Of a stretch of DNA of 64,000 nt, positions 8,443 to 57,466 are shown in pieces (position 1 is the stretch's first letter; each line of letters opens with the position of its first letter). The stretch comes from an uncultured Candidatus Peribacteria bacterium (GTDB taxonomy: Bacteria; Patescibacteriota; Gracilibacteria; Peribacterales; Peribacteraceae), in assembly GCA_964460365.1 (NCBI GenBank), contig CAYWPL010000002.1, positions 90,349 to 154,348 on the forward strand, written 5' to 3'. A program made the position numbers and the translations under genes. The notes under the pieces are model-generated. The model saw nothing but the letters and a program-made list of their open reading frames with translations, had not been told where the DNA came from and did no database searches.

Positions 8443-8758
8443 GATGCGCGGGAGCCGGCGGAAGGTGTGTGCGAGGGAAATCTTCTGATTGTACCAGAAA
8501 AACGTTTCACTTACAGCTTCCAGAAGCCATTTCCCCCAGTCTTATACTTGACGGAAAAAACGCATGATGGCTTGCACATACTTTGTAACAGCAAATGTGG
8601 GCATTTCGCGGCTGGAACAAGATACTAGAAAATATTTTTTGAAATAATCCACGTACAAGTTCTTGTCCTCGTCCGCATGCCAGGTGTACAACCGTTCACG
8701 TCCAGAGACAGGTACGCACTGCTCGCGGCATCCTCTACTTCCATTCCCCCCTCGGGTT

Positions 8759-9631: not shown

Positions 9632-9649
9632 TCGTCCTTTCCATCAGCC

Positions 9650-9682
9650 AAAAAGAAGAGCCGCCCTCCGGAGCGGTTTTTC
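9650..9682. terminator. Possible bidirectional terminator between ssb and the convergent small ORF
   Basis: aaaaagaagaGCCGCcctccggaGCGGtttttcg: a short GC stem flanked by an A-run and a T-run. The stem is weak. Confidence 0.35.
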
Positions 9683-9684
9683 GT

Positions 9685-9951
9685 TCACATCCAATCGTTT
9701 CGGTTCACGTTCATGCCCGCGATTGCGCCCCATTCTATTGCCGCCAGCTTCGCGCGGAAGTCTTCCAGCAGTCCCGGGATGTCCTCACGCGCGTGCGGCG
9801 ATCCTCCTTCGACATGATACACGCCCGTCATCGCGTCGAAGACGATCATGTGCCGTGCGGGCGCGCAGTTGGGCAGCGCGCCGGGTGATGGCGGAATTTC
9901 CACGATAACCGCGTTGTCACCCGCCTCCGCGACGGGAAAATGCGACGGCAC
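9685..9951 (-). CDS. Small hypothetical protein
   Basis: 88-aa ORF (GTG start) with clear GC3 bias. The same frame looks coding for about 35 more codons upstream (...LSEAGIAPDSPAILRVEAQTGDTTVAARIAALRNRFN) but has no ATG/GTG/TTG there. No family recognised. Confidence 0.45.
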   Translation of the reverse strand: MPSHFPVAEAGDNAVIVEIPPSPGALPNCAPARHMIVFDAMTGVYHVEGGSPHAREDIPGLLEDFRAKLAAIEWGAIAGMNVNRNDWM

Positions 9952-10135
9952 GTTGAAACGATTCCGAAGCGCGGCGATCCGGGCGGCGACCGTAGTGTCG
10001 CCTGTCTGCGCCTCAACGCGTAGGATCGCGGGTGAGTCTGGAGCGATGCCGGCTTCCGACAGAGGAGGAGTGACGGGATCGGGGGATTTCTCCCCACGAT
10101 ACCCTCGGGCGTTCCGGGCGCAATTGCGCTTTACA

Positions 10136-11005
10136 TCACTCCGTCAGTTTTCCATCGTTGCCGTACAGGCGCATCTCGATCCCGGCGATCTGCGGAACGT
10201 TCTTTTTGATGAGTGTTGTCATGCGGATCAAGTCGTCGAACGTCGCGTTGCCGACGTTGAGTAGAAAGTTTGCGTGCTTCTTTGCGATCTGCACGCCGCC
10301 TTCGGTATGGCCGCGCAGACCCGCCGCTTCGATCAATTTCCACGCGGGCGTGCCGTCGGGCAGTGCCTTGAAGCATGAGCCAGCGGTCTTGATGTGCGGC
10401 TGCGTCTCGAATCTTTTTTTGAGCAGCCGTTCGATCTCGGCTTTCACCTCCGCTTCGGGCCGCGAGGGCACTTCCAGCTCGGCTTCCCAGATGATCGGGG
10501 GCGTGTCGGTATCCTTGAATAAGCTCTCACGGTAGCGAAAATCACACTCCTCCCTCGTCAGCGTCCGCCACTGGCCGTCGAGCAGCACCGTGACGTGCCG
10601 CACGTAGGTATTCAGCCAGATACCCAGCGGACCCTGACCCGCATTGCCGAAGAGCGCGCCGCCGAGCGTGCCGGGGATGCCGGTGAGCGTCGAGAGATCC
10701 AAATTTGCTTTTGCGAGATCGTTGAGCAGGCTCGCAAGGATCTTCCCCGCCTCCACGCGCACGAGGTTTCCATCAACAGTCATCTTGTCGTTTTTCAGCC
10801 GGATGACGAGCGCGTTGATCTCGCCGTCAGCGAACACGGTGTTCGATCCCCCGCCGAGGACGATGAGCGGGACGTTCTTTTCCTTCGCAAATTGCACGGC
10901 CTCCTCTGCATCCGCCTGTGTCACAACATCTGCATACCAGCGCGCCTTGCCGCCGATGCGCATGGTCGTCTTTCCGCCGACGGAGACGAGTTCCTGGATC
11001 TGCAT
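10136..11005 (-). CDS. murB: UDP-N-acetylenolpyruvoylglucosamine reductase
   Basis: 289 aa. Typical MurB N-terminus (TTMRIGGKARWYADV), FAD-binding PLIVLGGGSNTVF, and a MurB C-terminal domain (KTAGSCFKALPDG..AWKLIEAAGLRG..GG). Confidence 0.9.
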   Translation of the reverse strand: MQIQELVSVGGKTTMRIGGKARWYADVVTQADAEEAVQFAKEKNVPLIVLGGGSNTVFADGEINALVIRLKNDKMTVDGNLVRVEAGKILASLLNDLAKANLDLSTLTGIPGTLGGALFGNAGQGPLGIWLNTYVRHVTVLLDGQWRTLTREECDFRYRESLFKDTDTPPIIWEAELEVPSRPEAEVKAEIERLLKKRFETQPHIKTAGSCFKALPDGTPAWKLIEAAGLRGHTEGGVQIAKKHANFLLNVGNATFDDLIRMTTLIKKNVPQIAGIEMRLYGNDGKLTE

Positions 11006-11051
11006 AACGACAGTTTACCTCACTTGGTGTTTTGTTTGCTGACGCTGAGTC

Positions 11052-11081
11052 TCTCTTTTCTTGTGGCGACAAGAAAAGAGA
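11052..11081. repeat. Perfect 13-bp-stem palindrome in the murB upstream spacer
   Basis: tctcttttcttgt-ggcg-acaagaaaagaga. It shares the core TTGT-GCGACAA with the palindrome at 11425-11448. Confidence 0.8.
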
Positions 11082-11424
11082 CAAAAGAAGCGCTCCGCGC
11101 GCCAAGCCCCGGCGGCTCCAACGGAAGCCAAGGTATGTGCCACTGGTGCCAACCTATTTTGGTCATGATGGACGCCGCCGGCCACTAACCGGCAGTGGCG
11201 CGCGGAAAACCCCGTACAGGTCAGCACGACCAGCGGAAGCAAAACAAAACATCACACACCTATTTCCGGAACCCGGCACCTTACACGGAGGTTGAGCATG
11301 CGAGCGCTTCTCGTAAGAAGCGTGAATCATGCGAATGCGCTTTCTTGCTCCCAGCGGCAAGCTCTCGAGCGCAAGCCAAGAGGCGATGCGCGAGTGGCTT
11401 GCTGCGCAGTCCCTTTAGGGAGGC

Positions 11425-11448
11425 ACTTCTTTGTCGCGACAAAGAAGT
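11425..11448 (-). terminator. 24-nt perfect palindrome just downstream of the gltX stop (hairpin terminator candidate, no U-tract)
   Basis: acttctttgtcg/cgacaaagaagt, lying 22 nt after the gltX TAG (11470-11472) on the minus strand. Confidence 0.45.
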
Positions 11449-11469
11449 ACCGACCCGGCGTCAGCCGCA

Positions 11470-12936
11470 CTACACCAGTTTCGCCGCAGCCTTGAGCCGT
11501 TTCACCGTCTCTTCTTTTCCGAGGCCATCAGCCACCTCAAACGCTCCGGGACTGTACGGAAGTCCTGTCAGCGCCGCGCGCATCGGCCACAGCACCTGGC
11601 CGTTTTTGAATCCGCGCTCCTTGATTTCAGGAATCAGAATGTCCTCCAGATACTGCGCGCCCCAGTCGTCGTCCCGATCATCATCCAGCATGTCGAGCAG
11701 CAGCTCGAATACCTTGGGGAGGATCTCGCGCGTCGCTTTCTGCTTCTCGTTCACCAGCAGATCGACGTTGATCGCGGGTGTCTCGTAGAAGTAGCCCATC
11801 ATGTCCGGCGCTTCCTTGAGGAACGTGATGCGCTCGTGGATCAATCCGGCTTTGTGGATGAAACACTCGTCATTTTTGGCCTCGGGATAGCGTGCGAAGA
11901 CGAGATCCTGGATGCGGGACGCGAAGTCCGTGATCGGCATTTTCCTGATCCACTGGCCCTGCAGCCAGTCGAGCTTCTCCGTATCAAACACCGCGCCGGA
12001 CTTCTGCACGCGATCCAGCGAGAACTGCTCTACGAGTTCGTCCATCGTGAAAATTTCTTGGGTCGTGCCCGGGTTCCATCCGAGCAGCGCAAGGAAGTTC
12101 AGCAGTGCTTCGGGCAGGTAGCCCTTCTCGATGTACTCGCCGACGGAGACCGAGTTCTGGCGCTTGCTCAGCTTGGACTTATCTTTATTGAGCAGCAGCG
12201 GAACGTGCGCGTAGCGCGGCAGCGGCCAGCCGAAATATTCGAAGAGCAGCAGGTGCTTGGGCAGCGAGCTCAGCCACTCCTCGCCGCGCATCACCAAATC
12301 AATCTCCATCAGGTGATCATCCACAACATGCGCAAGATGATACGTGGGGAAGCCGTCGCTCTTCAGCAGCACCTGGTCGTCCACCGTATGGCCCTGGAAG
12401 CTCACTTTGCCGCGGATGTCGTCCTCGAACGTGAGTGTGCGCTCGTGCGGCACGTTCATGCGGATCACGTGCGGCGCGCCCTCGGCGAGCTTTGCGTCGA
12501 CCTGCTCTTTTGTCAGCTTCTTGCAGAGCCGGTCGTACATCGGCGCTTGCTTGCGCTCCTCCTGTCCTTTGCGCATCTCATCCAGACGCTGCGACGTGCA
12601 GAAGCAGTGGTACGCATGGCCCTTGGCTAGCAGCTCGTCGGCGTACTTGCGGTAGAGCGGCAGGCGCTCGGACTGGAAATACGGCCCGTGGCGGCCCTGC
12701 TGCGAAACGATGCCGTTATCCAGCACTACGCCCTCCTGCGGATCAAGGCCGGCCCAATGCAGGGCTTCCAGGATGTTCTCCACGGCGCCCGCGACGCTGC
12801 GTGCCTGATCGGTGTCTTCGATGCGCAGCAGAAACGTGCCTTTGGTCTGGCGGGCGAGCAGGACGTTATACAGCGCGGTGCGCAGTCCTCCGATGTGGAG
12901 GAAGCCGGTGGGCGACGGAGGAAAGCGGGTGCGCAT
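11470..12936 (-). CDS. gltX: Glutamyl-tRNA synthetase
   Basis: ORF 11470-12966; ATG 12936 gives MRTRFPPSPTGFLHIGGLRTALYN (HIGH motif). KLSKR (KMSKS-like) is present and the full-length class I GluRS pattern is recognisable. Confidence 0.92.
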   Translation of the reverse strand: MRTRFPPSPTGFLHIGGLRTALYNVLLARQTKGTFLLRIEDTDQARSVAGAVENILEALHWAGLDPQEGVVLDNGIVSQQGRHGPYFQSERLPLYRKYADELLAKGHAYHCFCTSQRLDEMRKGQEERKQAPMYDRLCKKLTKEQVDAKLAEGAPHVIRMNVPHERTLTFEDDIRGKVSFQGHTVDDQVLLKSDGFPTYHLAHVVDDHLMEIDLVMRGEEWLSSLPKHLLLFEYFGWPLPRYAHVPLLLNKDKSKLSKRQNSVSVGEYIEKGYLPEALLNFLALLGWNPGTTQEIFTMDELVEQFSLDRVQKSGAVFDTEKLDWLQGQWIRKMPITDFASRIQDLVFARYPEAKNDECFIHKAGLIHERITFLKEAPDMMGYFYETPAINVDLLVNEKQKATREILPKVFELLLDMLDDDRDDDWGAQYLEDILIPEIKERGFKNGQVLWPMRAALTGLPYSPGAFEVADGLGKEETVKRLKAAAKLV

Positions 12937-13005
12937 TGGCAGGCAGGATAGCGCCTCGCACCGCAAAAAGCAGCGGGTAACGGAGGCTCAGCAACGGTTC
13001 CCGGC

Positions 13006-13815
13006 TCAGTTCTGGACCTTCATCGTGAAGGTGACCTTCTCCTCGGGGTAATCCGACGCGTCGCGCGGCAGGCGGGCGATGCTCTCGACGACGTCGAGGC
13101 CGCTGATCACCTTGCCGAAGACCGTGTGCTTGCCCTCCAGCCAGGGCGTCCCCTCGGGAGCCTGGATCAGGAAGAACTGGCTGCCGTTCGTATCCGGGCC
13201 GCGGTTCGCCATGGCGATCGCGCCGCGGGACATGGGCAGGGAGTTAAGCTTGTCGTTGTACTTGTAGTTCTGCTGCTCGTAGAACGCCTTGAGCGTCATG
13301 TTCTCGATTTCATCCGGCAGCTCATCTGGGTTCGCGACGTCCTTGAGGATCTTCTTGTCGAGGCCATAGCTGTTGGCGTTCATCTCATCCTCGAAGTTGG
13401 GACCGAAGACGCTCTCGCCGCCCGAGCCGCTTCCCAGCGGGTCGCCGCCCTGGATCATGAAATCGGGGATGATGCGGTGGAACGTGAGGCCGTCGTAGAA
13501 ACCGGCCTTGGCCAGCGCGACGAAGTTCGTGACGGTCTTGGGCGCGGCGTCGGCATCCAGCTCCAGGGCGATGTCGCCCTTGGTCGTCTTCATGATCACG
13601 ACGTGCTTGCCCGAGAGCATCGTGCCGTCGAAGTCGGCGCGCGCCTTGGCCAAAGCCGCCTGCGTCTTCGCGGCGTTGTCATCGGCGGTGGGGGTGTCGG
13701 CGGCGGACAACGTCGCTCCCGCGGAGCTGGTCGAATCGGTGGTCGGAGTCGCGGGAGCGCTGCAGCTCACGAGAAGAAAAGCCAGCGCGAAAAGCGGGAT
13801 GATGAATTTATACAT
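13006..13815 (-). CDS. Cyclophilin-type peptidyl-prolyl isomerase, lipoprotein
   Basis: 269 aa. Lipobox MYKFIIPLFALAFLLVSC. Cyclophilin core FHRIIPDFMIQGGDP...GSQFFL. Confidence 0.9.
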   Translation of the reverse strand: MYKFIIPLFALAFLLVSCSAPATPTTDSTSSAGATLSAADTPTADDNAAKTQAALAKARADFDGTMLSGKHVVIMKTTKGDIALELDADAAPKTVTNFVALAKAGFYDGLTFHRIIPDFMIQGGDPLGSGSGGESVFGPNFEDEMNANSYGLDKKILKDVANPDELPDEIENMTLKAFYEQQNYKYNDKLNSLPMSRGAIAMANRGPDTNGSQFFLIQAPEGTPWLEGKHTVFGKVISGLDVVESIARLPRDASDYPEEKVTFTMKVQN

Positions 13816-13891
13816 AGCTGAGGAAGAGTACTGACGCGCCCCGTCCCGCGCAACAGAGCAGACATCATTTCACATAGTTTGGCGACTCGCG

Positions 13892-14992
13892 TCACCGGGT
13901 CATTTTTTTCGCCGCTTCGGCGATGGCGGCAGCGATGCGCTCCGCCGCATCGGGCATCGCGAGTGTGAATGCTTTCTTGCCCATCGTCGCGCGGCGATCG
14001 CGGTCCTGCGCGAGCGACGTCACCGCGGCCACCAGTGTGCGGTCGAGTTCGGTCTGATGCAGCATCACGCAGCCGCCCGTGCGGCACGCCGCGAGCGCGT
14101 TACACAACTGATGATCCTGCGCGAGTCCCCTTAGGGGCACGAGCAGCGCGGGGATGCCGCAGCGCGCGAGTTCGCTCAGCGTTCCCGCGCCCGCGCGGCT
14201 CAGCGCGAAGTCGCTCAGCGCGTACAGATCGGCCAGCTGGTCCTGCACGAACTCCCGCGCCCAGTAGCCGGGACGTCCGGCGATGCCGCCTTTGCCGCGT
14301 CCCGTCAGATGGATGATGTCGGCGTGTTCCAGCAGCGCTTCGAGATGCTTCGTCACGGCGTCGTTGATCGCCTGCGCGCCCTGGCTGCCGCCGAGCACGA
14401 TCAGCACCGGACGTTTGCCAGAGAATCCCGTGATCGCCATGCCGCGTCCGCGCGCGCCGTTGCCGATGGACGGCCGTACCGGATTCCCGGTGAAGACGCA
14501 CTGCGCATTCGAGAGCGGATAGCCGCTGACGAGCCGCATCGTTCCTCCCGTCAGCGGAGTGCCGTCGCGTTTGTGCTGGGGAAAACCCAGACACACGGTG
14601 TGCGCCCAGCGGGCGATCAGCTTGTTGGCGCGTCCGCTCACGGCGTCGGACTCGTGCAGCACCACGGGGAGGCCGAGCGACCGCGCGGCGAGCGTCACGG
14701 GCACGCTCAGCAGGCCGCCTTTGCCGAAGACGACATCCGGCTTCCACTGTTTCATCAGCGCGCGCGATTGCCAGATGGCCTTGAGCATCCGGAGGAACGA
14801 CATCCGCCTGTCCGCGAGCGGCGTGAACGCCACCTTCTCTTTGCGCAGGAACTCGGCCTCTTCGTCCTGGTTCGTGCAGATGAAGTGCGCGGCTGCGTCC
14901 GGGTGACTCGCCTGCGCCGCGCGCCACACCGACACGCAGGGCGCGACATGCCCGATCGATCCTCCGCCGACGAAGAGTATGCGGAGTCTCAT
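13892..14992 (-). CDS. murG: Lipid II synthase MurG (UDP-GlcNAc transferase)
   Basis: ORF to 15013; ATG 14992 gives [18 protein letters not shown] (G-loop). LGGSQGA motif present. The start shares one nucleotide with the ftsW stop (TGATG). Confidence 0.88.
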   Translation of the reverse strand: MRLRILFVGGGSIGHVAPCVSVWRAAQASHPDAAAHFICTNQDEEAEFLRKEKVAFTPLADRRMSFLRMLKAIWQSRALMKQWKPDVVFGKGGLLSVPVTLAARSLGLPVVLHESDAVSGRANKLIARWAHTVCLGFPQHKRDGTPLTGGTMRLVSGYPLSNAQCVFTGNPVRPSIGNGARGRGMAITGFSGKRPVLIVLGGSQGAQAINDAVTKHLEALLEHADIIHLTGRGKGGIAGRPGYWAREFVQDQLADLYALSDFALSRAGAGTLSELARCGIPALLVPLRGLAQDHQLCNALAACRTGGCVMLHQTELDRTLVAAVTSLAQDRDRRATMGKKAFTLAMPDAAERIAAAIAEAAKKMTR

Positions 14993-24340: not shown

Positions 24341-25978
24341 ATGCGCAAACTCCTCTCGATCATTGTCGGCCTCTCCCTGCCTCTCGCCGTCCTCGCTCTC
24401 GATTACTCGGACGCGACAGGACGCTACACCGACCCGTCCTTCACGCGCAGCGAAGCCGCGGCGATCAGTGTCCTGACGAACGCGGGCGTAGTGAGCGGCA
24501 ATGACGACGGCAGCTTCCTCCCCCGCCGCACCCTCAACCGTGCGGAATTCGCCAAGATCGCCGTCCTCAGTGCCGGCATCGAGGTAAGCGTTGCCGGCAA
24601 CTGCTTCCCCGATGTCCGTAACGAATGGTTCGCCCGCTACGTCTGCACGGCTAAGAAGCGCGGGATCGTCCAGGGCAACCCAGACGGCTTGTATCATCCC
24701 GAACGCAACGTGAACTACGCCGAAGCCGTGAAGATCCTCGCGGGTCTGTACGGATACGACGTGTCCATGCAGCTGGGCGATGCCTGGTTCGCGCCTTTCC
24801 TCCGCGCCGCCGATGAACGCGGTGTGCTGCTGCCCGTCGCCCTCGATCCCGGCGCGCTCCTCACGCGCGGCCAGATGGCCCGCCTGACGGCCGCCGTCAT
24901 GGCCGAGGCCGCAGGTGAACTCGACCTCTACCGCGCGGCGGAGAACGGCGAGACGGTGGCGTCCTCGTCGTCTTCTTCCAGCAGCAGTTCGAGCATCTCA
25001 TCTTCTTCCTCGTCTTCTTCGACATCCTCGTCTTCGTCGTTTTCCTCCACTTCCACGGTCCTTGATCTGCCGGTGCGCAGCCGCTTCCTCGTCCTCGGCG
25101 AGCGGACCAAGCCGATCGCGGCCCTGACGTTCTTTGCCGACAAAGAGGCGATCTTCGTCCGCAGCGTGGAGATCAAACTGGAGCGCAAAGTCCTCTCGTT
25201 CGACACGATGTATCTGGTGGATGAGAACGGCGTGCAGATCGGCCAGGTCTCGCTGGATCGTCTCTTCGACAGCACGGACAAGACCTGGAGGGCCAGCTTC
25301 TCCGGTGGTACGTATCGCATCCCGAAGGGGACGGAGCGTCAGCTTGCCATCGAAGCGCTGCTCAAAGAGCGCGACAAGGGCGGCGGCTCGGACGAGCTCG
25401 TAAAAGTCGAAGACTTCCGCATGACGGCCCAGGGCGAGGACAGTGGCTCTAACTACAACGCCATCAAGCCCGACAGCCTTGTCTTCCCCAAGCACCAGAC
25501 GGCGCAGGGGCGCATCACCTCCGTGGTGAACGCGCTCTCGGAGACGGATTCCCTTCCGCTCGGTACCAACCAGGTCATCGGCGCCTTCACGTTCCGTGGC
25601 ACGCACGTGAGCGGTGCGGAGCTCCGCGTGGAGAACCTCGAGTTCCAGATCAGCAAGTCGTCCTCGGTGACGGTGACGAACTGGCAGCTGGGTACCGGCG
25701 AATCCTCGCTGCGCACCCCCTGCACGGTGAACGAGCTGATCGTCAGCTGTTACACGATTCCCGCCGAGATCGGCACGATCCCCAATGAGCCGCGCACGCT
25801 GCGCCTCTACGGCGATGTCGCGCTGGAGGCGGGCGCACAGGATTACTTCCTGCAGGTCAGCCTGAATCAGCCCGGCAATCCCGAAACGATCGGCGCCGTG
25901 CAGTGGACAGACGGCTCCGGCCATTTCCGCTGGACCGAGCTCTCATCGCCCGTCGCGCGGAGCGCGCGCTTCAATTAG
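24341..25978 (+). CDS. SLH-domain cell-surface (S-layer-like) protein with poly-Ser linker
   Basis: 545 aa. Signal peptide MRKLLSIIVGLSLPLAVLA. Three SLH-like repeats (..GVVSGNDDGSFLPRRTLNRAEFAKI; FPDVRNEWFARYVCTAKKRGIVQGNPDGLYHPERNVNYAEAVKIL; DAWFAPFLRAADERGVL...LTRGQMARL). A ~30-aa Ser run, then a beta-rich C-terminal domain. Confidence 0.88.
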   Translation: MRKLLSIIVGLSLPLAVLALDYSDATGRYTDPSFTRSEAAAISVLTNAGVVSGNDDGSFLPRRTLNRAEFAKIAVLSAGIEVSVAGNCFPDVRNEWFARYVCTAKKRGIVQGNPDGLYHPERNVNYAEAVKILAGLYGYDVSMQLGDAWFAPFLRAADERGVLLPVALDPGALLTRGQMARLTAAVMAEAAGELDLYRAAENGETVASSSSSSSSSSSISSSSSSSSTSSSSSFSSTSTVLDLPVRSRFLVLGERTKPIAALTFFADKEAIFVRSVEIKLERKVLSFDTMYLVDENGVQIGQVSLDRLFDSTDKTWRASFSGGTYRIPKGTERQLAIEALLKERDKGGGSDELVKVEDFRMTAQGEDSGSNYNAIKPDSLVFPKHQTAQGRITSVVNALSETDSLPLGTNQVIGAFTFRGTHVSGAELRVENLEFQISKSSSVTVTNWQLGTGESSLRTPCTVNELIVSCYTIPAEIGTIPNEPRTLRLYGDVALEAGAQDYFLQVSLNQPGNPETIGAVQWTDGSGHFRWTELSSPVARSARFN

Positions 25979-47303: not shown

Positions 47304-47666
47304 ATGAGTCGCGCGAACAACGCCCTCGCCAGGGTCCAGAATCTGTATGTGATGCAAAGCAAATTGCTGCATCTTCTGGAGAGCGAACTCGATCTCAGCA
47401 ACCCCGATGTGCGCCGCGAGGTGCGGGGCAGCATGAAAGAATTTGAGGAGCTCCTCTCCAAGGCCGACTGGCGGTACATGGGCGGCATGGACGTGTGGGA
47501 GACGCTGAAGAGTCTCCCAGCCGAGATGAGCCAGAAGCTCAAGGCCAGCGCGACCGCACTGCCGAAGCGCCGCCTCAAGGCCGCAGTCTCTTCCAAGCGC
47601 GCCGTGGTGAAGGCGAAGAAATCGAAACCAGTGAAGAAGGCGGGCGGCAAAAAGAAAAAGAAGTGA
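47304..47666 (+). CDS. Small hypothetical protein with Lys-rich (histone H1-like) tail
   Basis: 120 aa. Helical N-part; the tail KRRLKAAVSSKRAVVKAKKSKPVKKAGGKKKKK. Confidence 0.6.
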   Translation: MSRANNALARVQNLYVMQSKLLHLLESELDLSNPDVRREVRGSMKEFEELLSKADWRYMGGMDVWETLKSLPAEMSQKLKASATALPKRRLKAAVSSKRAVVKAKKSKPVKKAGGKKKKK

Positions 47667-48823: not shown

Positions 48824-50572
48824 TTACGCCGAGGCCTTCTCTGGCGATGCTGTGCCGACGGGTTTCTTCTCCGGAACCGCGATGCGGATATCGTCAATCA
48901 CAATCTGGACTTGCCGCGCGTCGCGCCAGGTGTCGATGCCAAGGTGGCACGCGATATCCACCAGGGCGTTCAGATGTGTCAGCAGATGACCGAGACGGAA
49001 GCCGATGGCTTTGCTGCGGCCGACACGCGCCTGCAGATGCGAGGCGTCGCGTCCCACCGCGCGCGGCTCATCGAGGCGGGTATTCCGTAGTAGGAAGCGC
49101 GGAGCGGGGTTCCCCTGCCCCACGGGCTCCAGTTCCAGCAGGCGTTCGCACAGCGGGAGCGTGAGGTGCGCGATATCCACGCATGCGTCGATGGCCAGGC
49201 GCGGGAGCAGATCATCTTCATCCACCGACGCCTCCACGTCGGTGGCGAGGCGGTCGCGCAGGGCGTCGAACGCGGCGACGGGGAATGTGCAGCCTGCAGC
49301 CATCGCGTGCCCGCCGAAGGATGTGAGCAAATCGGCGGCACGGCGGAGTCCCGTGGTGACGTTGTACGAGGGAATCCCGCGCAGCGATGCCGTGCACTGT
49401 CCGCCGCGTTCATGCGCGATGAGCACGGGACGTCCCGTCTTCTCGCAGAGTTTCCCGGCGATGAGTCCGCAGATGCCGGGCTGATAGCGTTCATCGCGCA
49501 GACACACGAATGCCGACGGCAATGCCGCAGCGCGAGCGAGCGCCTCGTCCATCAGCGCCGCCACTGTGTCCTGCCGCTCGCGGTTGAGTTGTTCCAGGTG
49601 CGCGGCAGCCGCCTGATCGCCAAGCAGCGCGTTGAGCGCGATCGCGGGTTCGGCCATCCGGCCTGCGGCGTTGAGGCGCGGAGCCAGACGAAACGCAACG
49701 TCCTGGCTGGACACGGGTCCGGCTGGGATCTCGGCTTGCATGCGCAGGAAGCCGAGCGGTCCGCGATCCAGCCGCGAGAGACTGATGAGCCCGCGATGCA
49801 CCAGCGTTCTGTTCGGGCCTTGCAGCGGCACGAGGTCCGCGATCGTCCCGATGGCGGCCAGCGCGAGATCCGTCTCGCGGTCCTCCCAGTCATCGCCGTG
49901 CTCCAGCGTCTCCAGTGCCCGCACAACGCTCCAGGCGATGCCTGCCGCCGCTGGATGCGGCTCGGGGAAACCCGGCGCCAGCGCGGGATGCAGCAGCGCG
50001 TGCGCGACCGGCAATTCCGCGGGCACCGTGTGGTGGTCGAGTACGATGACGTCGATGCCGAGTGTCGCGGCTTCGGCGATCTCGCGCTCCGCGGTGATGC
50101 CCGTGTCCACGGTGATCAGCAGGGTCACGCCCGCTTTTTTGAAATCATGGACGGCGCCGCTCTTCAATCCGTAGCCGTCATGCAGGCGATGGGGCAGGCG
50201 CACGACCGGCTCGATTCCCCGCCGCCGGAGCATGCGCATGAGGAGCGCCGCGCCGGTGATACCATCGCAGTCGTAATCGCCGAAGACGCCGATCGTTTCC
50301 TTCGTCTTCACCGCCGCGCGGATGCGTGTCAGCGCGCGGTCCAGATCGGGGAAGAGCGACGCGTCGGGGCCGAACTCTTCCGGGATCAGGCCGACCGGGA
50401 GCGCATCGATCCCGCGCTGGTCCAGCAGGTGATTCAGCAGTGCCTCGTCGCGGTCGCGCGCCGCCATGGGCAGCGCTCCACGCAGGTCCGCGCCGAGCAC
50501 CCAGCGCTTGCCGGTGAGCGATAACGTATGCACCGGGCTACGGTACCAGACCGGCTTGGCACCCACGATCAA
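48824..50572 (-). CDS. recJ: Single-stranded-DNA-specific exonuclease RecJ
   Basis: 582 aa. DHH family motifs: GVFGDYDCDGITGAALL, VDTGI, VLDHH, FGGHAMAAG. The start is uncertain. Confidence 0.9.
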   Translation of the reverse strand: MIVGAKPVWYRSPVHTLSLTGKRWVLGADLRGALPMAARDRDEALLNHLLDQRGIDALPVGLIPEEFGPDASLFPDLDRALTRIRAAVKTKETIGVFGDYDCDGITGAALLMRMLRRRGIEPVVRLPHRLHDGYGLKSGAVHDFKKAGVTLLITVDTGITAEREIAEAATLGIDVIVLDHHTVPAELPVAHALLHPALAPGFPEPHPAAAGIAWSVVRALETLEHGDDWEDRETDLALAAIGTIADLVPLQGPNRTLVHRGLISLSRLDRGPLGFLRMQAEIPAGPVSSQDVAFRLAPRLNAAGRMAEPAIALNALLGDQAAAAHLEQLNRERQDTVAALMDEALARAAALPSAFVCLRDERYQPGICGLIAGKLCEKTGRPVLIAHERGGQCTASLRGIPSYNVTTGLRRAADLLTSFGGHAMAAGCTFPVAAFDALRDRLATDVEASVDEDDLLPRLAIDACVDIAHLTLPLCERLLELEPVGQGNPAPRFLLRNTRLDEPRAVGRDASHLQARVGRSKAIGFRLGHLLTHLNALVDIACHLGIDTWRDARQVQIVIDDIRIAVPEKKPVGTASPEKASA

Positions 50573-50649
50573 GAAGGCCGCCGCGTCGGCGCATCAGTCA
50601 TCCAGGGGCTTCCGTCAGCGCTTTAGGTGGTTCCGTGCCTGTCCGGGAC

Positions 50650-51222
50650 TCAGCCGATGCGCAGGATCGTGATCAGGCGGTCGCGCCGCGCGCGCCAGAT
50701 CGTCCAGCCCACCGCGCCGAGCATCACGAGAATAGTGGCGGACTCAGCTGGTCCGGTGCCCGACAGGGGCGCGCCGGAGTGGAGAGCGGTCGATTGCAGA
50801 ATCTGTTGCCGGGCGGCGAGCTGGTAGGCCTGCTCAGCCCGTGCGTTCTGAAGGCGCCGTAGGAAGCGGGCCGTTGCAGGGTCCATGTCCACGCTCCAGA
50901 GAATCTTGTCGGCCGTGGCAGGACTGTCATCGCCGGGAGCCGAGCCGTGCAGGGTATCGTTATCGGTGCCCGCCGGCGTTCCCGCCGTGGAACTCGACGA
51001 ACCGGCTGTGCCATAGTCCGCGATCGTGGATGGGTGGTTCTGCTCGTTCTGCTGATGTTGCTGCCGTGCCGTCTCCTGCGCCGCACGGGGGCTGCGGGGG
51101 ACAAGCTGGGCGTTCTGATCGCGCAGCAGCACGTCCTCAGGTTGCAGATACTGCGCGCCTGCCGTCAGTGGAGTGAGGCTGATGATGAGGGCCAGAGCGG
51201 AGAATGTGAGACGACGCATCAT
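50650..51222 (-). CDS. Secreted protein with C-terminal TM anchor and basic tail, operon B gene 4
   Basis: ORF to 51348; ATG 51222 gives MMRRLTFSALALIISLTPLTAGA (signal peptide). Gln/Ser/Thr-rich low-complexity middle. C-terminus PLSGTGPAESATILVMLGAVGWTIWRARRD. Confidence 0.7.
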   Translation of the reverse strand: MMRRLTFSALALIISLTPLTAGAQYLQPEDVLLRDQNAQLVPRSPRAAQETARQQHQQNEQNHPSTIADYGTAGSSSSTAGTPAGTDNDTLHGSAPGDDSPATADKILWSVDMDPATARFLRRLQNARAEQAYQLAARQQILQSTALHSGAPLSGTGPAESATILVMLGAVGWTIWRARRDRLITILRIG

Positions 51223-51247
51223 GACATTATACAGAAAAAATTGACTG

Positions 51248-52276
51248 TTAACAAGTCGCCTTCTCCGAGAGGAGGCAGTCGTAGTACTCCTGGTGATCCA
51301 GAACGCCGTCCTCATCCGTGTCGATTTTCCGCGGGTCGGTTTCGCCATTGTCGACGCTGCCGCTCAGGTTGCGGTCCTCGCCCTCCCAACGCTTGAAGGG
51401 CAGGTTGAGACACGTGTTACCCGTGTTGTCGGAACAGATGCGCTGCGTGCTTCGCACTTCGCAGTAGCCGTCGCAGAGGCCGTCGCTGTCGCTGTCTTTC
51501 TTGGTCGGATCTGTTTCGCCGACATTGAGGATGCCGTTGCGGTTCTTGTCCTCAATGCCGTCGATCAGGCCGTCGTGGTCGGTGTCGCGGACGCGCGGGT
51601 CGCTGTGCAGGCTGAAAATCTCGTAGTCATCACGCACGCCGTCCCGGTCCGTATCAGCTCGCAGCGGGTTGGTCCGGTGCCGCTTCTCCAGCTGATCGTT
51701 CAATCCGTCGCCGTCCGGATCCAGGCCGACGGCGAGCGGCAATTCGCTCATCACGTAGCACGTCATGCCCGGCTTGAAGATTTCCAGCTGATGACGGATG
51801 ACGCCGCTGACGGGGCGCTGGTCCAGTTCCGCCTGCGTGGGCGGATTGAAAATCGTGAACGGTGTCTCGGCCAGGATTTTGGCGCGGAGACGCGCGGCGC
51901 GCTCACCTTCGGACAGGAAGACTTTGCCGGGCAGCGTGCCGCTCTGCGGCGGATTGGTCGGATCATCCGATGCGAAGCAATACCCCCAGTACCGCACGGT
52001 CCTCGCCGGGCGTCCGAACAGCGTCTCACGCGTGACGGGAGCCATGGTGCCCGGCAGATGGAGGAACACATGGGTCTTGGCGGGGATCGTCGCTCCGGTG
52101 GAGACCATATCCGCTGTGACCGTCTTCCACATTTCCTGCTCCTGGGGCTTCGGAATGACGATGGCCGTGAGGCCCGCCCCGTCTCCGGGCGCGTATGTCG
52201 CCACCATCATCCACGCGTAGGCCGCGGAGAGAAGAGTGAACGCGCAGTGGAGGAACGTGGAGCGACGCGTATGCAT
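51248..52276 (-). CDS. Membrane-anchored protein with thrombospondin type-3-like calcium-binding repeats, operon B gene 3
   Basis: ORF to 52375; ATG 52276 gives MHTRRSTFLHCAFTLLSAAYAWMMVA. Five DxDxDG-type repeats (DPDGDGLND, DTDRDGVRDD, DTDHDGLIDG, DSDSDGLCDG, DTDEDGVLD). Confidence 0.8.
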   Translation of the reverse strand: MHTRRSTFLHCAFTLLSAAYAWMMVATYAPGDGAGLTAIVIPKPQEQEMWKTVTADMVSTGATIPAKTHVFLHLPGTMAPVTRETLFGRPARTVRYWGYCFASDDPTNPPQSGTLPGKVFLSEGERAARLRAKILAETPFTIFNPPTQAELDQRPVSGVIRHQLEIFKPGMTCYVMSELPLAVGLDPDGDGLNDQLEKRHRTNPLRADTDRDGVRDDYEIFSLHSDPRVRDTDHDGLIDGIEDKNRNGILNVGETDPTKKDSDSDGLCDGYCEVRSTQRICSDNTGNTCLNLPFKRWEGEDRNLSGSVDNGETDPRKIDTDEDGVLDHQEYYDCLLSEKATC

Positions 52277-52304
52277 GGAATCAGGAACAAGGAATCGATC
52301 CCGC

Positions 52305-54851
52305 TCAAGATTTCCCCTGGATCGCGCCCTGGAGGATGATGCGCGGAATTTCGCCGCCCTCGATTTCCCGCTCAATCATCTGGTGGCCGTTGTAGAAATA
52401 GACCTTGATCGTGCGATAATTCGCATTGGGCGTCGTGTCCCGGACGTTCAGCACGCCGTTGACGAACGTCAGGCCGAAGCCGTTCTGTATGACCTCAGCG
52501 GCGCCGACTGCGCCGGCTGGGGCTTCCGTGTAGGGGGGTCTTCCGGCAAGGCGGGTGAGGCTGACGAACGTGGGATGGCCCTGGTTCGCCATGACCTCCA
52601 GCGGATTGACCGTGAACATCGGGCGCAACACGCTTTCGCGTGCGCGGAGCGAGTTCCCCGGCGTGACCGTGATGTTCTTCACCTCCACGTTCACGTCGAT
52701 GGTGTTGCCGGTCGTGCCGGCACCGCCACGGAATTTCAGCGGGATCATGCACTCAAGGTCGTTGGTGCTAGCCACCGTCACGTTGCCGTCGGCGTCGCGC
52801 ACGATGGTCACGCCGTCGCGGGTGAACGTCTCTCCCACGGCGATGGGCTGATCGTTGTACTCGACGACGGTCGCGCGGCGGCGTTCGGCGGACATGCCGC
52901 GCGGGCCGATCTCGACGCGGCGGCGGTGTCCGGTGTACATGGGCTCGGGCTGATTCACTTCGATCGTCTCCGGTGCGCGCGTCACTTCGATCGTGCGCAT
53001 GATGCGCTGGTTGCCGTGGTAGAAGTACACGTTGACCGTTTCGGCCTTGTCTCCGCGGGCCGTCAGGATGCCGTTCTCGTAGCTCAGGCGGATGTTATTG
53101 CTAGGCGTCGTTACCGGTGCGGCGCCGATGGGGCCGGGAATGGCGGCCGGATCGTACGGCGTGGTGGCGTTCAGGCGATTGACGGAGCTGAGGCTGACGA
53201 TGGTGCTACCGCCTTCCGTGAGGGGATTGACGCTGATGGTGCGGCTCTCGCCCTCCGGCATCGTCACGTTGGGCGTGGCACCGATGGCGAGGATCCGGGC
53301 CTGACGCTCGATGGGAGCCTGGCCAGTGCGGGTGAATCGGATCGGCACAGTGACGGCTTCATCATTGATGCTATCGGCGGTGATGCGGTAGGCATTCCCT
53401 GCCAGCACGCGCCGGAACCGCACGCCGTTTACGCGCGTGGGGACGGCGAGGGCATCGCCAAGCACAACGTTCGTGTCCCCGATGGTGATGGTGGTGTTCG
53501 CGAGAGCCTCAGTCTCAGATTCGTCGCTGCCGGTGCCCGTCACCGAAACGTCAAAATTCATACTTCGGCCGGTGTAGACCGCATCCGGCTGGTTCACTTC
53601 GATGTTGCGTGTCACCTCGCGCGCGGCTTCAAACGTGAAGATCAGGTTGTTGAGCCCGTCGCTGCTGCGCGAGACGGTCGCAACGCTGTTGATGCCGCCT
53701 TCGGTGAATGTCGAGCCGCCGCGGGTCAGGCGCAGGCGGGTGCTGCTGGTATTGAGGTTCCGGGCGACGCTCTGAGGGATGCGGTAATACTTCACGCCGC
53801 CGCTGACGAGAATCGGCGTGCCGACTTCTTCGTTGATTTCTCCTCTGGCCCGCGAGAATTCGGCGGTGGTATCCGCATCCACGCGAAGCAATTTATAGAC
53901 CTGTGCCTCCCCGATCGTGTCGAACGGGCGGCTGTACATGTCGAGACTGATGGTCTGGAGCTTCGCGGCGTCATCGCGCGCCTGCATCTGCGCGGCGAGG
54001 GTTGCTTTGCGCGCCTGGAGCATCCGCTGGTCCAGCGTTTCCTGGCCGTCGCGCGGCGAGCCGTTCGGCGCGCGGACGCCCGCGTCGATTTCCAGCTGAC
54101 GGATGAGGCGTTCACAGGCGAGATAGTGGCGCTCGAGTTGTACGACATTCCAGTAGACACGCGACACGCGCTCGGACCCGTAGGGCACGCCGCCCGTCGC
54201 GCTGTAGCGGTTGATCGCGTCATAGCGGTAGGTGTTCGCCGTCTTGCTGAACGCCTCGCCTCCGCGCCGGGCCCAGCGGGCGTATGTCGGACTGTACTCC
54301 AGATAGTTCTGTTCGGGAGACACCGCGATGCCGTTGTTCTGGACGACGATGGCATTCCGGTAAAAGAGCTCGGCGTTCACGGCGTAAGGCTGCCACTGCG
54401 CACCCGATCTGTTGGTCTGTAGCGAAAGGAACCGGCCGTCAGTTGTCCGGGCGAAGAGGAAATTGGGAAACTGGTCCACGCGGAAGCGCAACTGCTGCTC
54501 GCGGGGCTCCCGCATCAGATCAGTTGTTACCTGTCCGATGGTGCGGCTGTCCGCGGCCGCGTCGAGCGGAGCCCGGATGGTGCCGATGGTGTCGCGTCCG
54601 CGTTTCTTGCCGATCTGGCCGAGCGTCGTCAGGAGCGCCGTCGCCCGGGTCTGGTATTCCCGGACGCGATCCTGGACGGTGTCGTATGCGTACTGGTTCT
54701 TCGTCACTTCATCGCCCTCGACGGATTCGCGCATGAACAGATTGTTGATGTGATTCAGATTCGAACTTGGTGCCTGCTGGTACGCCAGACGCCGCTCGCC
54801 GTGAGAGACGGAGGAGCGGGGGAAGAGCCGGGGGAGAGAGGTGTGTGTCAT
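52305..54851 (-). CDS. 848-aa hypothetical repeat protein without signal peptide, operon B gene 2
   Basis: The long ORF has native codon bias and Asn/Thr/Tyr/Ile-rich composition, whereas the 728-aa antisense ORF is Arg/Ala/Gly/His-rich. Two tandem ~200-aa repeats each start IEVNQP..YTG and end ..VYFY.G.Q.I.R.IE. No family recognised. Confidence 0.85.
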   Translation of the reverse strand: MTHTSLPRLFPRSSVSHGERRLAYQQAPSSNLNHINNLFMRESVEGDEVTKNQYAYDTVQDRVREYQTRATALLTTLGQIGKKRGRDTIGTIRAPLDAAADSRTIGQVTTDLMREPREQQLRFRVDQFPNFLFARTTDGRFLSLQTNRSGAQWQPYAVNAELFYRNAIVVQNNGIAVSPEQNYLEYSPTYARWARRGGEAFSKTANTYRYDAINRYSATGGVPYGSERVSRVYWNVVQLERHYLACERLIRQLEIDAGVRAPNGSPRDGQETLDQRMLQARKATLAAQMQARDDAAKLQTISLDMYSRPFDTIGEAQVYKLLRVDADTTAEFSRARGEINEEVGTPILVSGGVKYYRIPQSVARNLNTSSTRLRLTRGGSTFTEGGINSVATVSRSSDGLNNLIFTFEAAREVTRNIEVNQPDAVYTGRSMNFDVSVTGTGSDESETEALANTTITIGDTNVVLGDALAVPTRVNGVRFRRVLAGNAYRITADSINDEAVTVPIRFTRTGQAPIERQARILAIGATPNVTMPEGESRTISVNPLTEGGSTIVSLSSVNRLNATTPYDPAAIPGPIGAAPVTTPSNNIRLSYENGILTARGDKAETVNVYFYHGNQRIMRTIEVTRAPETIEVNQPEPMYTGHRRRVEIGPRGMSAERRRATVVEYNDQPIAVGETFTRDGVTIVRDADGNVTVASTNDLECMIPLKFRGGAGTTGNTIDVNVEVKNITVTPGNSLRARESVLRPMFTVNPLEVMANQGHPTFVSLTRLAGRPPYTEAPAGAVGAAEVIQNGFGLTFVNGVLNVRDTTPNANYRTIKVYFYNGHQMIEREIEGGEIPRIILQGAIQGKS

Positions 54852-54878
54852 GTGTGTTTGTGGAAGGCGGAGGAAGGA

Positions 54879-55193
54879 TCAGGCGGGAACGTTGGAAGCA
54901 TCATCATCCAAAATGTGTTCGGCGCCAGCGCGCTCGTCGGCTTCGACTTCGCCGTGAATCTTCGGCAGTTCCGTGCGGCGGAAGGCGGTGATTTCCTTCA
55001 TGCCTTCATCGACGCTGGCGAGAATTGCTCTGCTCTCCGTCAGAATCTCGCCGTGCTCCTTCTGGAGTTCGGCCATCGCCTCGGCGCGACGCTTGTCGGA
55101 AAGCTTCGGCGCGAGTGCGACGAGCTGCTCGATCATCACTGGGGGCAGGCCGGTCAGCGTGCGCACGGCGGCGATGAAGTCTTCGGCGGTCAT
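54879..55193 (-). CDS. Small acidic helical hypothetical protein, operon B gene 1
   Basis: 104 aa with no signal peptide: MTAEDFIAAVRTLTGLPPVMIEQLVALAPKLSDKRRAEAMAELQKEHGE... Acidic C-terminus. 27 nt upstream of the 848-aa gene. Confidence 0.65.
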   Translation of the reverse strand: MTAEDFIAAVRTLTGLPPVMIEQLVALAPKLSDKRRAEAMAELQKEHGEILTESRAILASVDEGMKEITAFRRTELPKIHGEVEADERAGAEHILDDDASNVPA

Positions 55194-55306
55194 AGCGAGA
55201 GGAGGGAAATCCGCTCAGTATACCAGATACATCGTCTCTTTTAAAGCAGTTTTCCGCGTCCCGGGGCATGGCGGGTTTCGGCTCCAGCCGCTATCCTCGG
55301 CTTCAC

Positions 55307-57190: not shown

Positions 57191-57466
57191 TCAGCGGACG
57201 GCGTCCTTGAGGGTCTTGCCGGCCTTGAACGACGGGACCTTCATCGCGGGGATGGAGATCTTCTGCGTCGGGTTGCGCGGGTTGACGCCCATGCGCGCCG
57301 CGCGGTGGCTGAGCTTGAAGGTGCCGAAGCCCGTGATCGTGACAGGCTGTCCCTTCTTCAGGTTCTTCACGACGATGTTGATGACGGCCTGGAGGGCGTC
57401 AGCAGCAGCGCGCTTGGTGATTCCGGCGGCATCCGCGATGGCCGCGATCAGATCCTGCTTGGACAT
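57191..57466 (-). CDS. hup: HU-family DNA-binding protein
   Basis: 91 aa. MSKQDLIAAIADAAGITKRAAADALQAV...ITGFGTFKLSHRAARMGVNPRNPTQKISIPAMKVPSFKAGKTLKDAV. Confidence 0.95.
   Translation of the reverse strand: MSKQDLIAAIADAAGITKRAAADALQAVINIVVKNLKKGQPVTITGFGTFKLSHRAARMGVNPRNPTQKISIPAMKVPSFKAGKTLKDAVR

Follow-up and report, generated by a model that had tools for sequence, protein, structure and literature searches.

Bacteria of the candidate phyla radiation (CPR, also termed Patescibacteria) are thought to be attached to other cells. How they build the attachment surface is largely obscure, and so is which of their proteins exit without a Sec signal peptide. Can a small gene cluster from an uncultured Candidatus Peribacteria bacterium bear on these questions? 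The cluster is part of a stretch of 64,000 nucleotides (contig CAYWPL010000002.1, positions 90,349 to 154,348; henceforth the window, whose numbering is used for all coordinates of this genome). Four genes are located on the minus strand between dnaJ and recJ. Gene 1 (54879-55193) codes for an acidic protein of 104 amino acids (aa) with an isoelectric point (pI) of 4.7, gene 2 (52305-54851) for a leaderless, modular protein of 848 aa with a pI of 9.1, gene 3 (51248-52276) for a protein of 342 aa with an N-terminal anchor and repeats of the thrombospondin type 3 (TSP3), and gene 4 (50650-51222) for a protein of 190 aa with a signal peptide and a C-terminal hydrophobic stretch. All four are delimited by open reading frames (ORFs) and gene calls. 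An earlier reading of the DNA, in the following the original prediction, had described them as an operon of four closely spaced same-strand genes, divergent from dnaJ and native in codon usage, which cannot be assigned to a described system. The layout holds: the gaps between genes 1 and 2, 2 and 3, and 3 and 4 are 27, 28, and 25 nt, respectively, and the start of dnaJ is 74 nt away from gene 1 on the opposite strand, across a divergent spacer. recJ starts 77-83 nt downstream of gene 4. The GC content at third codon positions of the four genes (0.73-0.82) equals that of the remainder of the window.

The answer which we favor, at a probability of about 0.4, is that gene 2 has in gene 1 its own adaptor or assembly chaperone, that the modular gene 2 protein is probably a surface protein which bypasses the Sec pathway, and that the products of genes 3 and 4 are its docking partners. 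The gene 1 protein would bind to a basic arm with an ExRL(L/I) motif and to the first helix of the gene 2 head. Gene 2 would combine a conserved base, made up of helices and a beta-sandwich, with a distal part which varies between lineages and which here is a rod of four immunoglobulin (Ig)-like domains; most likely it reaches the cell exterior as a surface or adhesion protein without a Sec signal peptide. The membrane-anchored, calcium-binding gene 3 protein and the mucin-like gene 4 protein with its C-terminal anchor or sorting signal plausibly constitute the docking site. Both would be Sec-dependent envelope proteins which are transcribed with the cassette in this lineage and may cooperate with it. 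If gene 2 is exported, the candidate machines in Patescibacteria are the type IV secretion system (T4SS) and type IV pili or the type II secretion system (T4P/T2SS) (PMC12857230); none of these is visible in the 64-kb window.

The pairing of genes 1 and 2 carries this proposal. In 12 of 12 loci examined a gene-1 homologue is positioned immediately upstream of a large ORF. Spacings lie between -11 and +36 nt; in seven of the pairs the two genes overlap, by 1-11 nt, which suggests translational coupling. When the window proteins were compared by tblastn with the loci L004, L005, L007, L008, and L009, a gene 1 homologue was located directly upstream of a gene 2 homologue in all five. The other members of the gene-1 family which were looked up are each accompanied by a large ORF starting -4 to +11 nt from the stop of the small gene, and a locus from a JGI metagenome (L015) contributes an additional gene 1/gene 2 pair. 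The notion of a small acidic protein paired with a large leaderless one is thus well founded, as the two are strictly co-conserved, often with overlapping stop and start codons. So far the pair has been found only in Peribacteria, where it may be present in several copies. One metagenome-assembled genome carries at least two paralogous cassettes (L005 and L007). In L004, between mfd and aspS, three small-plus-large cassettes follow each other in tandem (2815-14715, plus strand; 101+2163, 112+722, and 121+700 aa). All three large proteins begin with an E-x-R-L motif; that of 2163 aa has internal hydrophobic segments.

The large partners are not all alike. They comprise at least three families: a profile of the gene 2 head detects neither the 2163-aa type (L004 and L012) nor the 826-aa type (L010), and the partner in L016 aligns with the 2163-aa type of L004 and L012 at 49% identity. 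Common to the partner types is E-x-R-[LI]-[LIVA] at residues 7-23, with the variants ERRLL, EERLL, EQRLL, EKRIL, and EARLI. By our own estimate the chance expectation for ExR[LI][LIVA] is about 0.005 per N-terminus. When the profiles of the gene 2 type and the 2163-aa type were aligned with hhalign, a single further element came out, the helix DVQxRIxxxxxRLxxL, which is located at residues 56-80 of either type (E = 0.012; the probability is low). Within the gene 2 family 16 of 18 members possess the ExRL motif. It is also present in four large proteins outside of this family, three of them preceded by gene-1-like genes, and within the window the motif is carried by gene 2 only. The head module of gene 2 itself (residues 1-85; 54597-54851, minus strand) is composed of the basic ExRL(L/I/A) arm, a linker, and the helix YDxVQxRVxxYxxR; the motif, here ERRLA, aligns at residues 19-23 (54783-54797, minus strand). 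The charges are complementary, i.e., the tail of gene 1 (residues 80-104) has a net charge of -7 and residues 1-30 of gene 2 one of +3 plus two histidines. The best reason to think that gene 1 acts on the N-terminal module is that a homologous small protein accompanies large partners which are not homologous and have nothing but this module in common. By extension, the gene-1 family and the ExRL(L/I) head, in two of the partner families with its conserved helix, might define a hitherto overlooked way, independent of Sec, by which Peribacteria target or export large polymorphic proteins of the surface or effector kind, with gene 1 as the dedicated adaptor and perhaps the essential T4SS of Patescibacteria or another translocon as the machine; we regard this generalization as rather unlikely.

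What kind of protein is gene 2? Its family is narrow. HMMER, run exhaustively against 1.84 billion representative proteins, yielded only 20 relatives at E <= 1e-3. A word-indexed homology search recovered gene 2 itself only, and a profile of the N-terminal domain only two known relatives. Neither gene 1 nor gene 2 nor gene 4 has a match in Pfam, NCBIfam, PHROGs, PADLOC, or among PDB sequences; a reading as a defence system was dropped because PADLOC gave no match. Sequence and profile searches of the gene 2 head against the PDB returned noise only. The statement that gene 2 is devoid of a signal peptide, a transmembrane segment, and a recognizable catalytic or nucleotide-binding motif stands up to scrutiny: it contains no hydrophobic window of 15 or 19 residues and no Walker A, HExxH, or repeats-in-toxin (RTX, GGxGxD) motif. 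A twin-arginine translocation (Tat) signal was considered and rejected; two arginines are present, but there is no hydrophobic h-region and no regular-expression match. A clear relationship between the 848-aa protein and a known family would contradict the original prediction; none turned up in the database searches or in the Foldseek searches described below.

An alignment of 18 gene 2 family members demonstrates a mosaic build. With the exception of one truncated sequence, the N-terminal 300-410 aa, approximately, are common to all. They are marked by E-x-R-L-(L/I)-x-(M/F) near residue 10-25, by KNxYAYDxVQxR and long helices, and further on by LQTIHxDxY..PFT, YHLLRLP, LSGGAxY, and NNLIFTF. 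In the window protein the segment following the head (residues 86-410; 53622-54596, minus strand) comprises, according to the family alignment and an AlphaFold2 (AF2) model, a variable insertion (about residues 93-198), helices at residues 236-256 and 273-289, and a beta-sandwich at residues 317-408 which ends in NNLIFTF. The C-termini of the family are mutually unrelated: there are beta-repeats with IEVNxIxPMYTG resembling those of the window protein, KE-rich coiled coils, Pro-rich linkers, and helical repeats. Eight large partners, namely seven members of the family plus the 2163-aa protein of L004, were scanned with Pfam, and no domain was detected in any of them. Two family members, P0002 and P0012, have a C-terminal tail in common, DAGGQxR...WN(Y/H)(L/Y)RNGSQNDNQN(G/K), which is missing from gene 2 of the window.

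A conserved N-terminal region of the trafficking type followed by highly variable C-termini is also what one would expect of a polymorphic effector or toxin cassette, in which the head and gene 1 load a variable C-terminal payload onto a contact-dependent machine, e.g., the T4SS of Patescibacteria, for injection into a host bacterium. The presence of several paralogues per genome, with up to three tandem cassettes as in L004, fits such an assignment, and so does the small adaptor gene immediately upstream, as in LXG/Lap, Eag/prePAAR, and VirE1/VirE2. The T4SS is essential for epibiotic growth of Patescibacteria, and its protein cargo is left unnamed in a review of the subject (PMC12857230). 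However, no tested family member contains a toxin or enzymatic domain, an obvious immunity gene is lacking, T4SS signals usually are C-terminal, the window displays no T4SS genes, and the payload at this locus, four Ig-like domains, looks structural or adhesive. We consider an injected effector distinctly unlikely.

The Ig-like domains emerge from sequence and from structure prediction. The tandem repeat that had been proposed for gene 2, two units of about 200 aa behind an N-terminal part, is evident on comparing residues 417-630 with residues 630-840 (31% identity, E = 1e-17). Repeat 1 (residues 417-630; 52962-53603, minus strand) starts with IEVNQPxxxYTG and is resolved by alignment, AF2, and Foldseek into two Ig-like beta-sandwich domains; repeat 2 (residues 631-840; 52332-52961, minus strand) is a second two-domain copy. 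An AF2 model based on the 18-sequence alignment has an overall predicted local distance difference test (pLDDT) of 58, with 70-90 over residues 200-540, and a predicted template modelling (pTM) score of 0.43; a model from the single sequence (pLDDT 36) was unusable. It has long helices at residues 59-84, 236-256, and 273-289, the beta-sandwich at residues 317-408, and more beta-sandwich domains thereafter. Foldseek searches of the model against PDB and BFVD retrieved only tandem Ig-like arrays (E of 1e-4 to 1e-6), among them titin, cell-adhesion molecules, SGBP-B, PorU, GhpA, and some phage tail/Ig proteins. Neither an enzyme fold nor a capsid fold, HK97-like or other, was among the top 50 matches in each library. 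As modelled, then, gene 2 is a helical and beta-sandwich head followed by four Ig-like domains which would have arisen by tandem duplication. Within gene 2 the ratio of nonsynonymous to synonymous substitution rates (dN/dS) is 0.44-0.45 for the Ig repeats vs. 0.17-0.27 for the N-terminal part.

Gene 1 is similarly rare, its family consisting of only 12 clusters among 5.8 billion sequences. As had been stated, the protein of 104 aa is acidic and has no signal peptide; it contains no hydrophobic segment. Conserved in it are GLPP, LAPKLSD(E/Q)ER, (D/A)EG in the center, and AExI(L/F)DD in the acidic tail. Composition and weak matches to helical or largely helical proteins make it a presumably helical protein. 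Several weak matches concern phage scaffolding proteins. Three of seven gene-1 members matched phrog_10439, the phi29-type head scaffolding family, below threshold (E = 0.03-0.07), and a gene 1 profile against the PDB aligned with Gp7 fusion chains, again below significance (E = 0.02-0.04). The LPP...LAPKLSDEER segment aligns with the N-terminal helix of gp7, and none of 2000 shuffles of the gp7 segment reached the gene 1 score.

Might the pair be a domesticated phage module, with gene 1 as a phi29 gp7-like scaffolding protein and gene 2 as a capsid- or fibre-type protein with Ig-like decoration? Beyond the recurrent scaffolding matches (best E = 0.03 in PHROGs), the phage tail/Ig proteins among the Foldseek matches would accord with it, and leaderless Ig-domain proteins are common among phage structural proteins. 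Yet all scaffolding matches stay below significance, and a Pfam scan of gene 1 and six homologues gave unrelated weak matches only. Genes 1 and 2 have no tblastn match in 50,697 phage genomes and no relatives in IMG/VR. The latter search, like the locus scans, used a subset of five sequences, as the 18-sequence alignment is too diverse for locus scanning. A capsid fold failed to appear among the top 50 Foldseek matches in spite of a pLDDT of 70-90 at residues 200-540. No other phage genes are nearby; the context is one of housekeeping genes (dnaJ, recJ, hsp20) which is syntenic with L007, and relatives of 1100-2160 aa with coiled-coil or Pro-rich tails are unlike capsid proteins. A phage origin thus appears very unlikely. 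PHROGs matches of the 18 gene 2 head domains were dismissed as noise since they were scattered singles (major head protein in 1 of 18, E = 0.28).

Are all four genes real, and do they belong together? The first part is readily answered. Three public contigs, each with an identical gene 2, were called independently with the same four gene lengths. Gene 3 of 342 aa and gene 4 of 190 aa start at internal ATGs; the longest ORFs at these positions are 375 and 232 aa. The orthologous locus L007, found in a scan of GTDB, has the order dnaJ / genes 1, 2, 3, 4 / recJ / xre / hsp20. Compared with L007 the dN/dS values are 0.165, 0.31, 0.045, and 0.164 for genes 1 through 4, and 0.10 and 0.08 for the flanking recJ and dnaJ. 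Values of 0.045-0.31 identify the four as real coding genes, all of them under purifying selection; gene 2 evolves fastest and gene 3 is nearly frozen. Two antisense ORFs, 52236-54422 and 51293-52339 on the plus strand, were discarded as high-GC shadows of genes 2 and 3, the minus-strand frames being favored by gene callers and by dN/dS. The gene 2 ORF of L007 only looks longer, owing to a masked stretch of N; it has no real extension.

Genes 3 and 4 have the features of envelope proteins which had been ascribed to them. Gene 3 starts with a hydrophobic anchor (residues 8-27), followed by a domain of about 150 aa for which family searches detected no relatives. DxDxDG motifs at residues 186, 208, 231, 261, and 319 delineate TSP3-type calcium-binding repeats (PF18884-like), located by motif scan at residues 186-324 (51305-51721, minus strand); the protein contains nine cysteines. 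The match to Pfam TSP3_bac (PF18884) is just short of the cut-off (E = 3e-5; 24.1 bits vs. 25). The NCBIfam CglD model matches the repeats only (E = 2.6e-22; 78.5 bits vs. an equivalog cut-off of 400), and a second NCBIfam equivalog, used as a test for CglD/MtsD, reached 16.9 bits vs. a cut-off of 800. By these scores gene 3 is no equivalog of CglD or MtsD; it is best described as an ordinary protein with TSP3 repeats.

The gene 4 protein begins with a signal peptide of the AxA type (residues 1-23, TAGA|Q). A region rich in Q, S, and T and a helical segment follow, and the C-terminus (residues 153-190; 50653-50766, minus strand) comprises LSGTGPAES, a hydrophobic stretch of 15 residues, and the basic tail RARRDR. 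Compared with a sortase motif, LSGTG at residue 153 has Ser instead of Pro/Ala in position 2; the hydrophobic stretch and the basic tail are in place, and no sortase was seen in the window. Sequence homologues of genes 3 and 4 were found only in L007, at 97% (324 aligned residues) and 86% identity, and there the C-terminus of gene 4 is identical as far as the basic tail. At other loci unrelated genes come after the pair, i.e., an M23 peptidase, a DEAD helicase, or an 88-aa membrane protein. In L015, whose gene 2 homologue is 33% identical, the pair is succeeded by two look-alikes of genes 3 and 4 in swapped order: a 175-aa protein (3375-3902, plus strand), in which a signal peptide and a region rich in S, T, and A precede LTGSGPAGP plus a transmembrane segment, and a 404-aa protein which is N-terminally anchored, with a membrane-proximal domain and Cys/Asp-rich repeats. 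Conservation of the four genes as a unit, as implied originally, is therefore not borne out. The association with envelope proteins appears to recur once independently, in L015, and is not universal. From the two C-termini one may further consider L[ST]G[ST]GPA, a hydrophobic stretch, and a charged tail as an undescribed C-terminal sorting signal, sortase-like or other.

The locus is present in metagenomes of wastewater and activated sludge, and it is expressed. RNA contigs of four wastewater metatranscriptomes cover 50.3-55.19 kb, i.e., genes 1 through 4, and contig depth is zero over dnaJ and over recJ past its 5' end. In two DNA runs coverage is even across all of the 10 kb, which rules out DNA carry-over as the source of the RNA signal. 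The junction of genes 2 and 3 is spanned by an RNA contig (51948-52909), and that of gene 4 and recJ by another (50328-51202); contigs enter the first 250 nt, approximately, of recJ, and a terminator-like hairpin between gene 4 and recJ was not found. As to co-transcription of recJ, which had been raised originally, read-through into its 5' end is apparent; co-transcription of the entire gene is not demonstrable from contigs. At the other end, contigs in two of the RNA runs break off at 55186/55187, barely within the start of gene 1. A promoter-like site by sigma-70-like consensus match only (TTTAAA, 17 nt spacer, TG-extended TATACT; 55217-55245, minus strand) is situated in the dnaJ spacer, 24 nt upstream of the gene 1 ATG. 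RNA contig depth drops at 51.2-51.8 kb and recovers over gene 4. A second promoter-like site, likewise by consensus match only (TTGTTA, 17 nt spacer, TATAAT; 10 of 12 positions; 51226-51254, minus strand), ends 3 nt upstream of the gene 4 ATG; it may be an internal promoter which gives rise to a leaderless gene 4 mRNA. Upstream of genes 1 and 2 (55194-55216 and 54852-54878, minus strand) a Shine-Dalgarno-like purine run is missing and the leaders are pyrimidine-rich with CCTCC.

Does gene 2 leave the cell at all? One may alternatively view genes 1 and 2 as a cytoplasmic scaffold or cytoskeleton-like complex, with a coiled-coil base and an Ig-like rod, in which gene 2 is never exported and genes 3 and 4 are unrelated to the pair and share a transcript with it only in this lineage. 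This is a serious alternative, albeit somewhat unlikely. It takes the missing signal peptide, transmembrane segment, and known secretion signal of gene 2 and the absence of secretion genes nearby at face value. It agrees with the loci L004, L005, L008, and L009, in which the pair is conserved without genes 3 and 4, with long KE-rich coiled coils and helical repeats among the family C-termini, and with separate expression of gene 4 as suggested by the promoter-like site before it and the dip in RNA depth. Against a cytoplasmic complex, the Ig arrays evolve about twice as fast as the head, which is more typical of exposed proteins. Two independent lineages have placed Sec-dependent envelope proteins of the same architecture directly after the pair. 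Further, a short N-terminal linear motif on otherwise unrelated large proteins looks more like a targeting signal than like a piece of a fold.

An adaptor with an exported surface protein as its client is favored by the conserved head combined with variable C-termini and by the Ig arrays, which are typical of adhesins and cell-surface proteins. Peribacteria are reported to invest heavily in large, often Cys-rich extracellular proteins and to have sortase A, S-layer genes, and T2SS/T4P (PMC4736985). Several observations weigh against this proposal. A secretion ATPase or translocon was seen neither in the vicinity of the locus nor among about 40 scanned window proteins, and gene 2 has neither a signal peptide nor a known C-terminal secretion signal, so that we only infer its export. 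Some C-termini of the family are HEAT-like or coiled-coil and equally suited to the cytoplasm. At most pair-bearing loci genes 3 and 4 are missing, and the link to the envelope may be a local coincidence. The similarity to L015 is slight: the gene 3 domain aligns weakly with the 404-aa protein (pairwise E = 0.003 over 79 residues), and the resemblance of gene 4 to its counterpart is confined to the architecture and to a short motif. Confidence in the AF2 model is only moderate (pLDDT 58, pTM 0.43), and the RNA data are unstranded assembled contigs, not raw reads.

The cassette, a strictly paired small protein plus a short N-terminal motif, is a concrete and testable handle, and its expression in activated sludge is in situ. 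Should motif and partner turn out to be a targeting device, one could list from sequence alone which surface or effector proteins Peribacteria have, and the machine which handles them would be pointed to. Even a cytoplasmic pair would amount to a structural system specific to this lineage, in very small genomes whose retained multi-copy genes are likely important. The gene-1/gene-2 family is narrow and its function is deduced; whether the cassette is a new kind of system will be decided by experiments.

Other parts of the window merit a brief mention. The top RNA contig depth of the 10-kb region (about 8-46 per bin; contigs 31-62; four metatranscriptomes) belongs to a protein of 120 aa (47304-47666, plus strand) which ends in a Lys-rich tail and has no Pfam match. 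Four consecutive ORFs of about 834, 313, 300, and 1088 aa (876-8442, minus strand) have Sec-type signal peptides, no Pfam match, and no ExRLL motif. A 545-aa protein with two SLH domains (24341-25978, plus strand) indicates that the genome encodes cell-wall-anchored proteins of the S-layer type. A 322-aa protein of the single-stranded DNA-binding protein (SSB) family (8663-9631, plus strand) has two matched SSB stretches and is unusually long for a bacterial SSB. In the HU gene (57191-57466, minus strand) an RNA contig joint at 57229-57317 skips 87 nt in four runs and 80 nt in one, and contigs have loose ends at 57209 and 57337; the joint probably reflects chimeric contigs with a related, highly expressed HU gene of another organism.

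How does the cassette compare with known systems? Gene 3 resembles Myxococcus TSP3 proteins of the CglD/MtsD type (PF18884) with its five DxDxDG repeats and interspersed cysteines. It differs in that only the repeats match, the N-terminal 150 aa, approximately, remain unmatched, and its length is 342 vs. about 1100 aa. With the type 1 secretion adhesins LapA, SiiE, and MpIBP gene 2 has in common the lack of an N-terminal signal peptide and the tandem Ig-like domains, and a calcium-binding sequence is present as well, here in the neighboring gene 3. Unlike these adhesins, gene 2 is 848 aa long and not thousands, it has no RTX GGxGxD motif, and adjacent genes for an ATP-binding cassette transporter or a membrane fusion protein are absent (the neighbors are dnaJ, gene 3, gene 4, and recJ).

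A precedent for an N-terminal motif comes from Planctomycetes, in which cell-surface proteins carry a non-hydrophobic N-terminal motif, RRLxxExLExRxLLA or LxLExLExRxxP, thought to be an unconventional export signal (PMC8567305). As in that motif (PF07595), a short non-hydrophobic E-x-R...L sequence is found here close to the N-terminus of large, often Ig-domain proteins. The spacing differs, however, i.e., ExRLL (E-x-R-L-[LI]-x-[FM]) vs. ExRxLL or ExRxxP, and no small partner gene has been described in Planctomycetes. Identity with PF07595 was rejected because no Pfam model matched eight N-termini at E <= 10; the motifs are similar in character and different in sequence. Separately, a 912-aa beta-rich protein is encoded directly upstream of the gene 1/gene 2 pair in another Peribacteria genome (L009, 2288-5026, plus strand). 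It starts with ...GLGFENLEDRINPAP, which fits the planctomycete LxLExLExRxxP in the form LxFExLExRxxP (PMC8567305), and no Pfam model matched its N-terminus at E <= 10. This suggests that the planctomycete cell-surface motif occurs in CPR bacteria as well.

The type VII secretion system of the b type (T7SSb) offers LXG toxins with the partners Lap1 and Lap2. The likeness lies in a helical partner of about 100 aa encoded upstream, a conserved helical N-terminus, a polymorphic C-terminus, and several cassettes per genome; the central conserved xEG of gene 1 could be a hairpin turn as in the WXG100-like Lap partners. Unlike LXG systems, genes 1 and 2 have no W-x-G and match no WXG or LXG model, and the C-termini are not toxin domains. 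An FtsK-type ATPase of the EssC/EccC kind is encoded neither in the window nor in the flanks of L004, L005, L008, L009, and L015.

In LXG/Lap, Eag/prePAAR, and VirE1/VirE2 a small adaptor gene directly precedes a large substrate gene. The same arrangement of a small acidic protein upstream of a large leaderless one, often translationally coupled, links our pair to class I chaperones of type III secretion (the T3SS), to VirE1-VirE2 of the Agrobacterium T4SS, and to Eag-prePAAR of type VI secretion (the T6SS). As in chaperone-effector pairs, the putative recognition determinant is contained in the first 100 residues, approximately, with a conserved N-terminal motif and a variable remainder. Unlike in such pairs, gene 1 has no sequence match to chaperone or adaptor families and is seemingly all-helical with about 100 aa; neither gene 1 nor its six homologues belong to the CesT/SycE-type chaperones of the T3SS by Pfam and NCBIfam. 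T3SS, T4SS, or T6SS genes are absent near the locus and among the scanned window proteins, of which about 40 include no injectisome or flagellar export genes, and the host is a monoderm-type CPR bacterium. Thus, of the membership features of secretion-pair systems which can be tested at the sequence level none was detected, and the phi29 scaffold match of gene 1 is sub-threshold. The original verdict that the system cannot be assigned holds for all resources searched (Pfam, NCBIfam, PHROGs, PADLOC, PDB, Foldseek, phage genomes, and IMG/VR). As far as sequences can tell, the gene 1/gene 2 cassette is new at the level of protein families and of gene-pair logic. By analogy, its nearest functional counterparts would be the pairs of secretion chaperone or adaptor and substrate, i.e., T3SS class I, VirE1/VirE2, Eag/prePAAR, and LXG/Lap.

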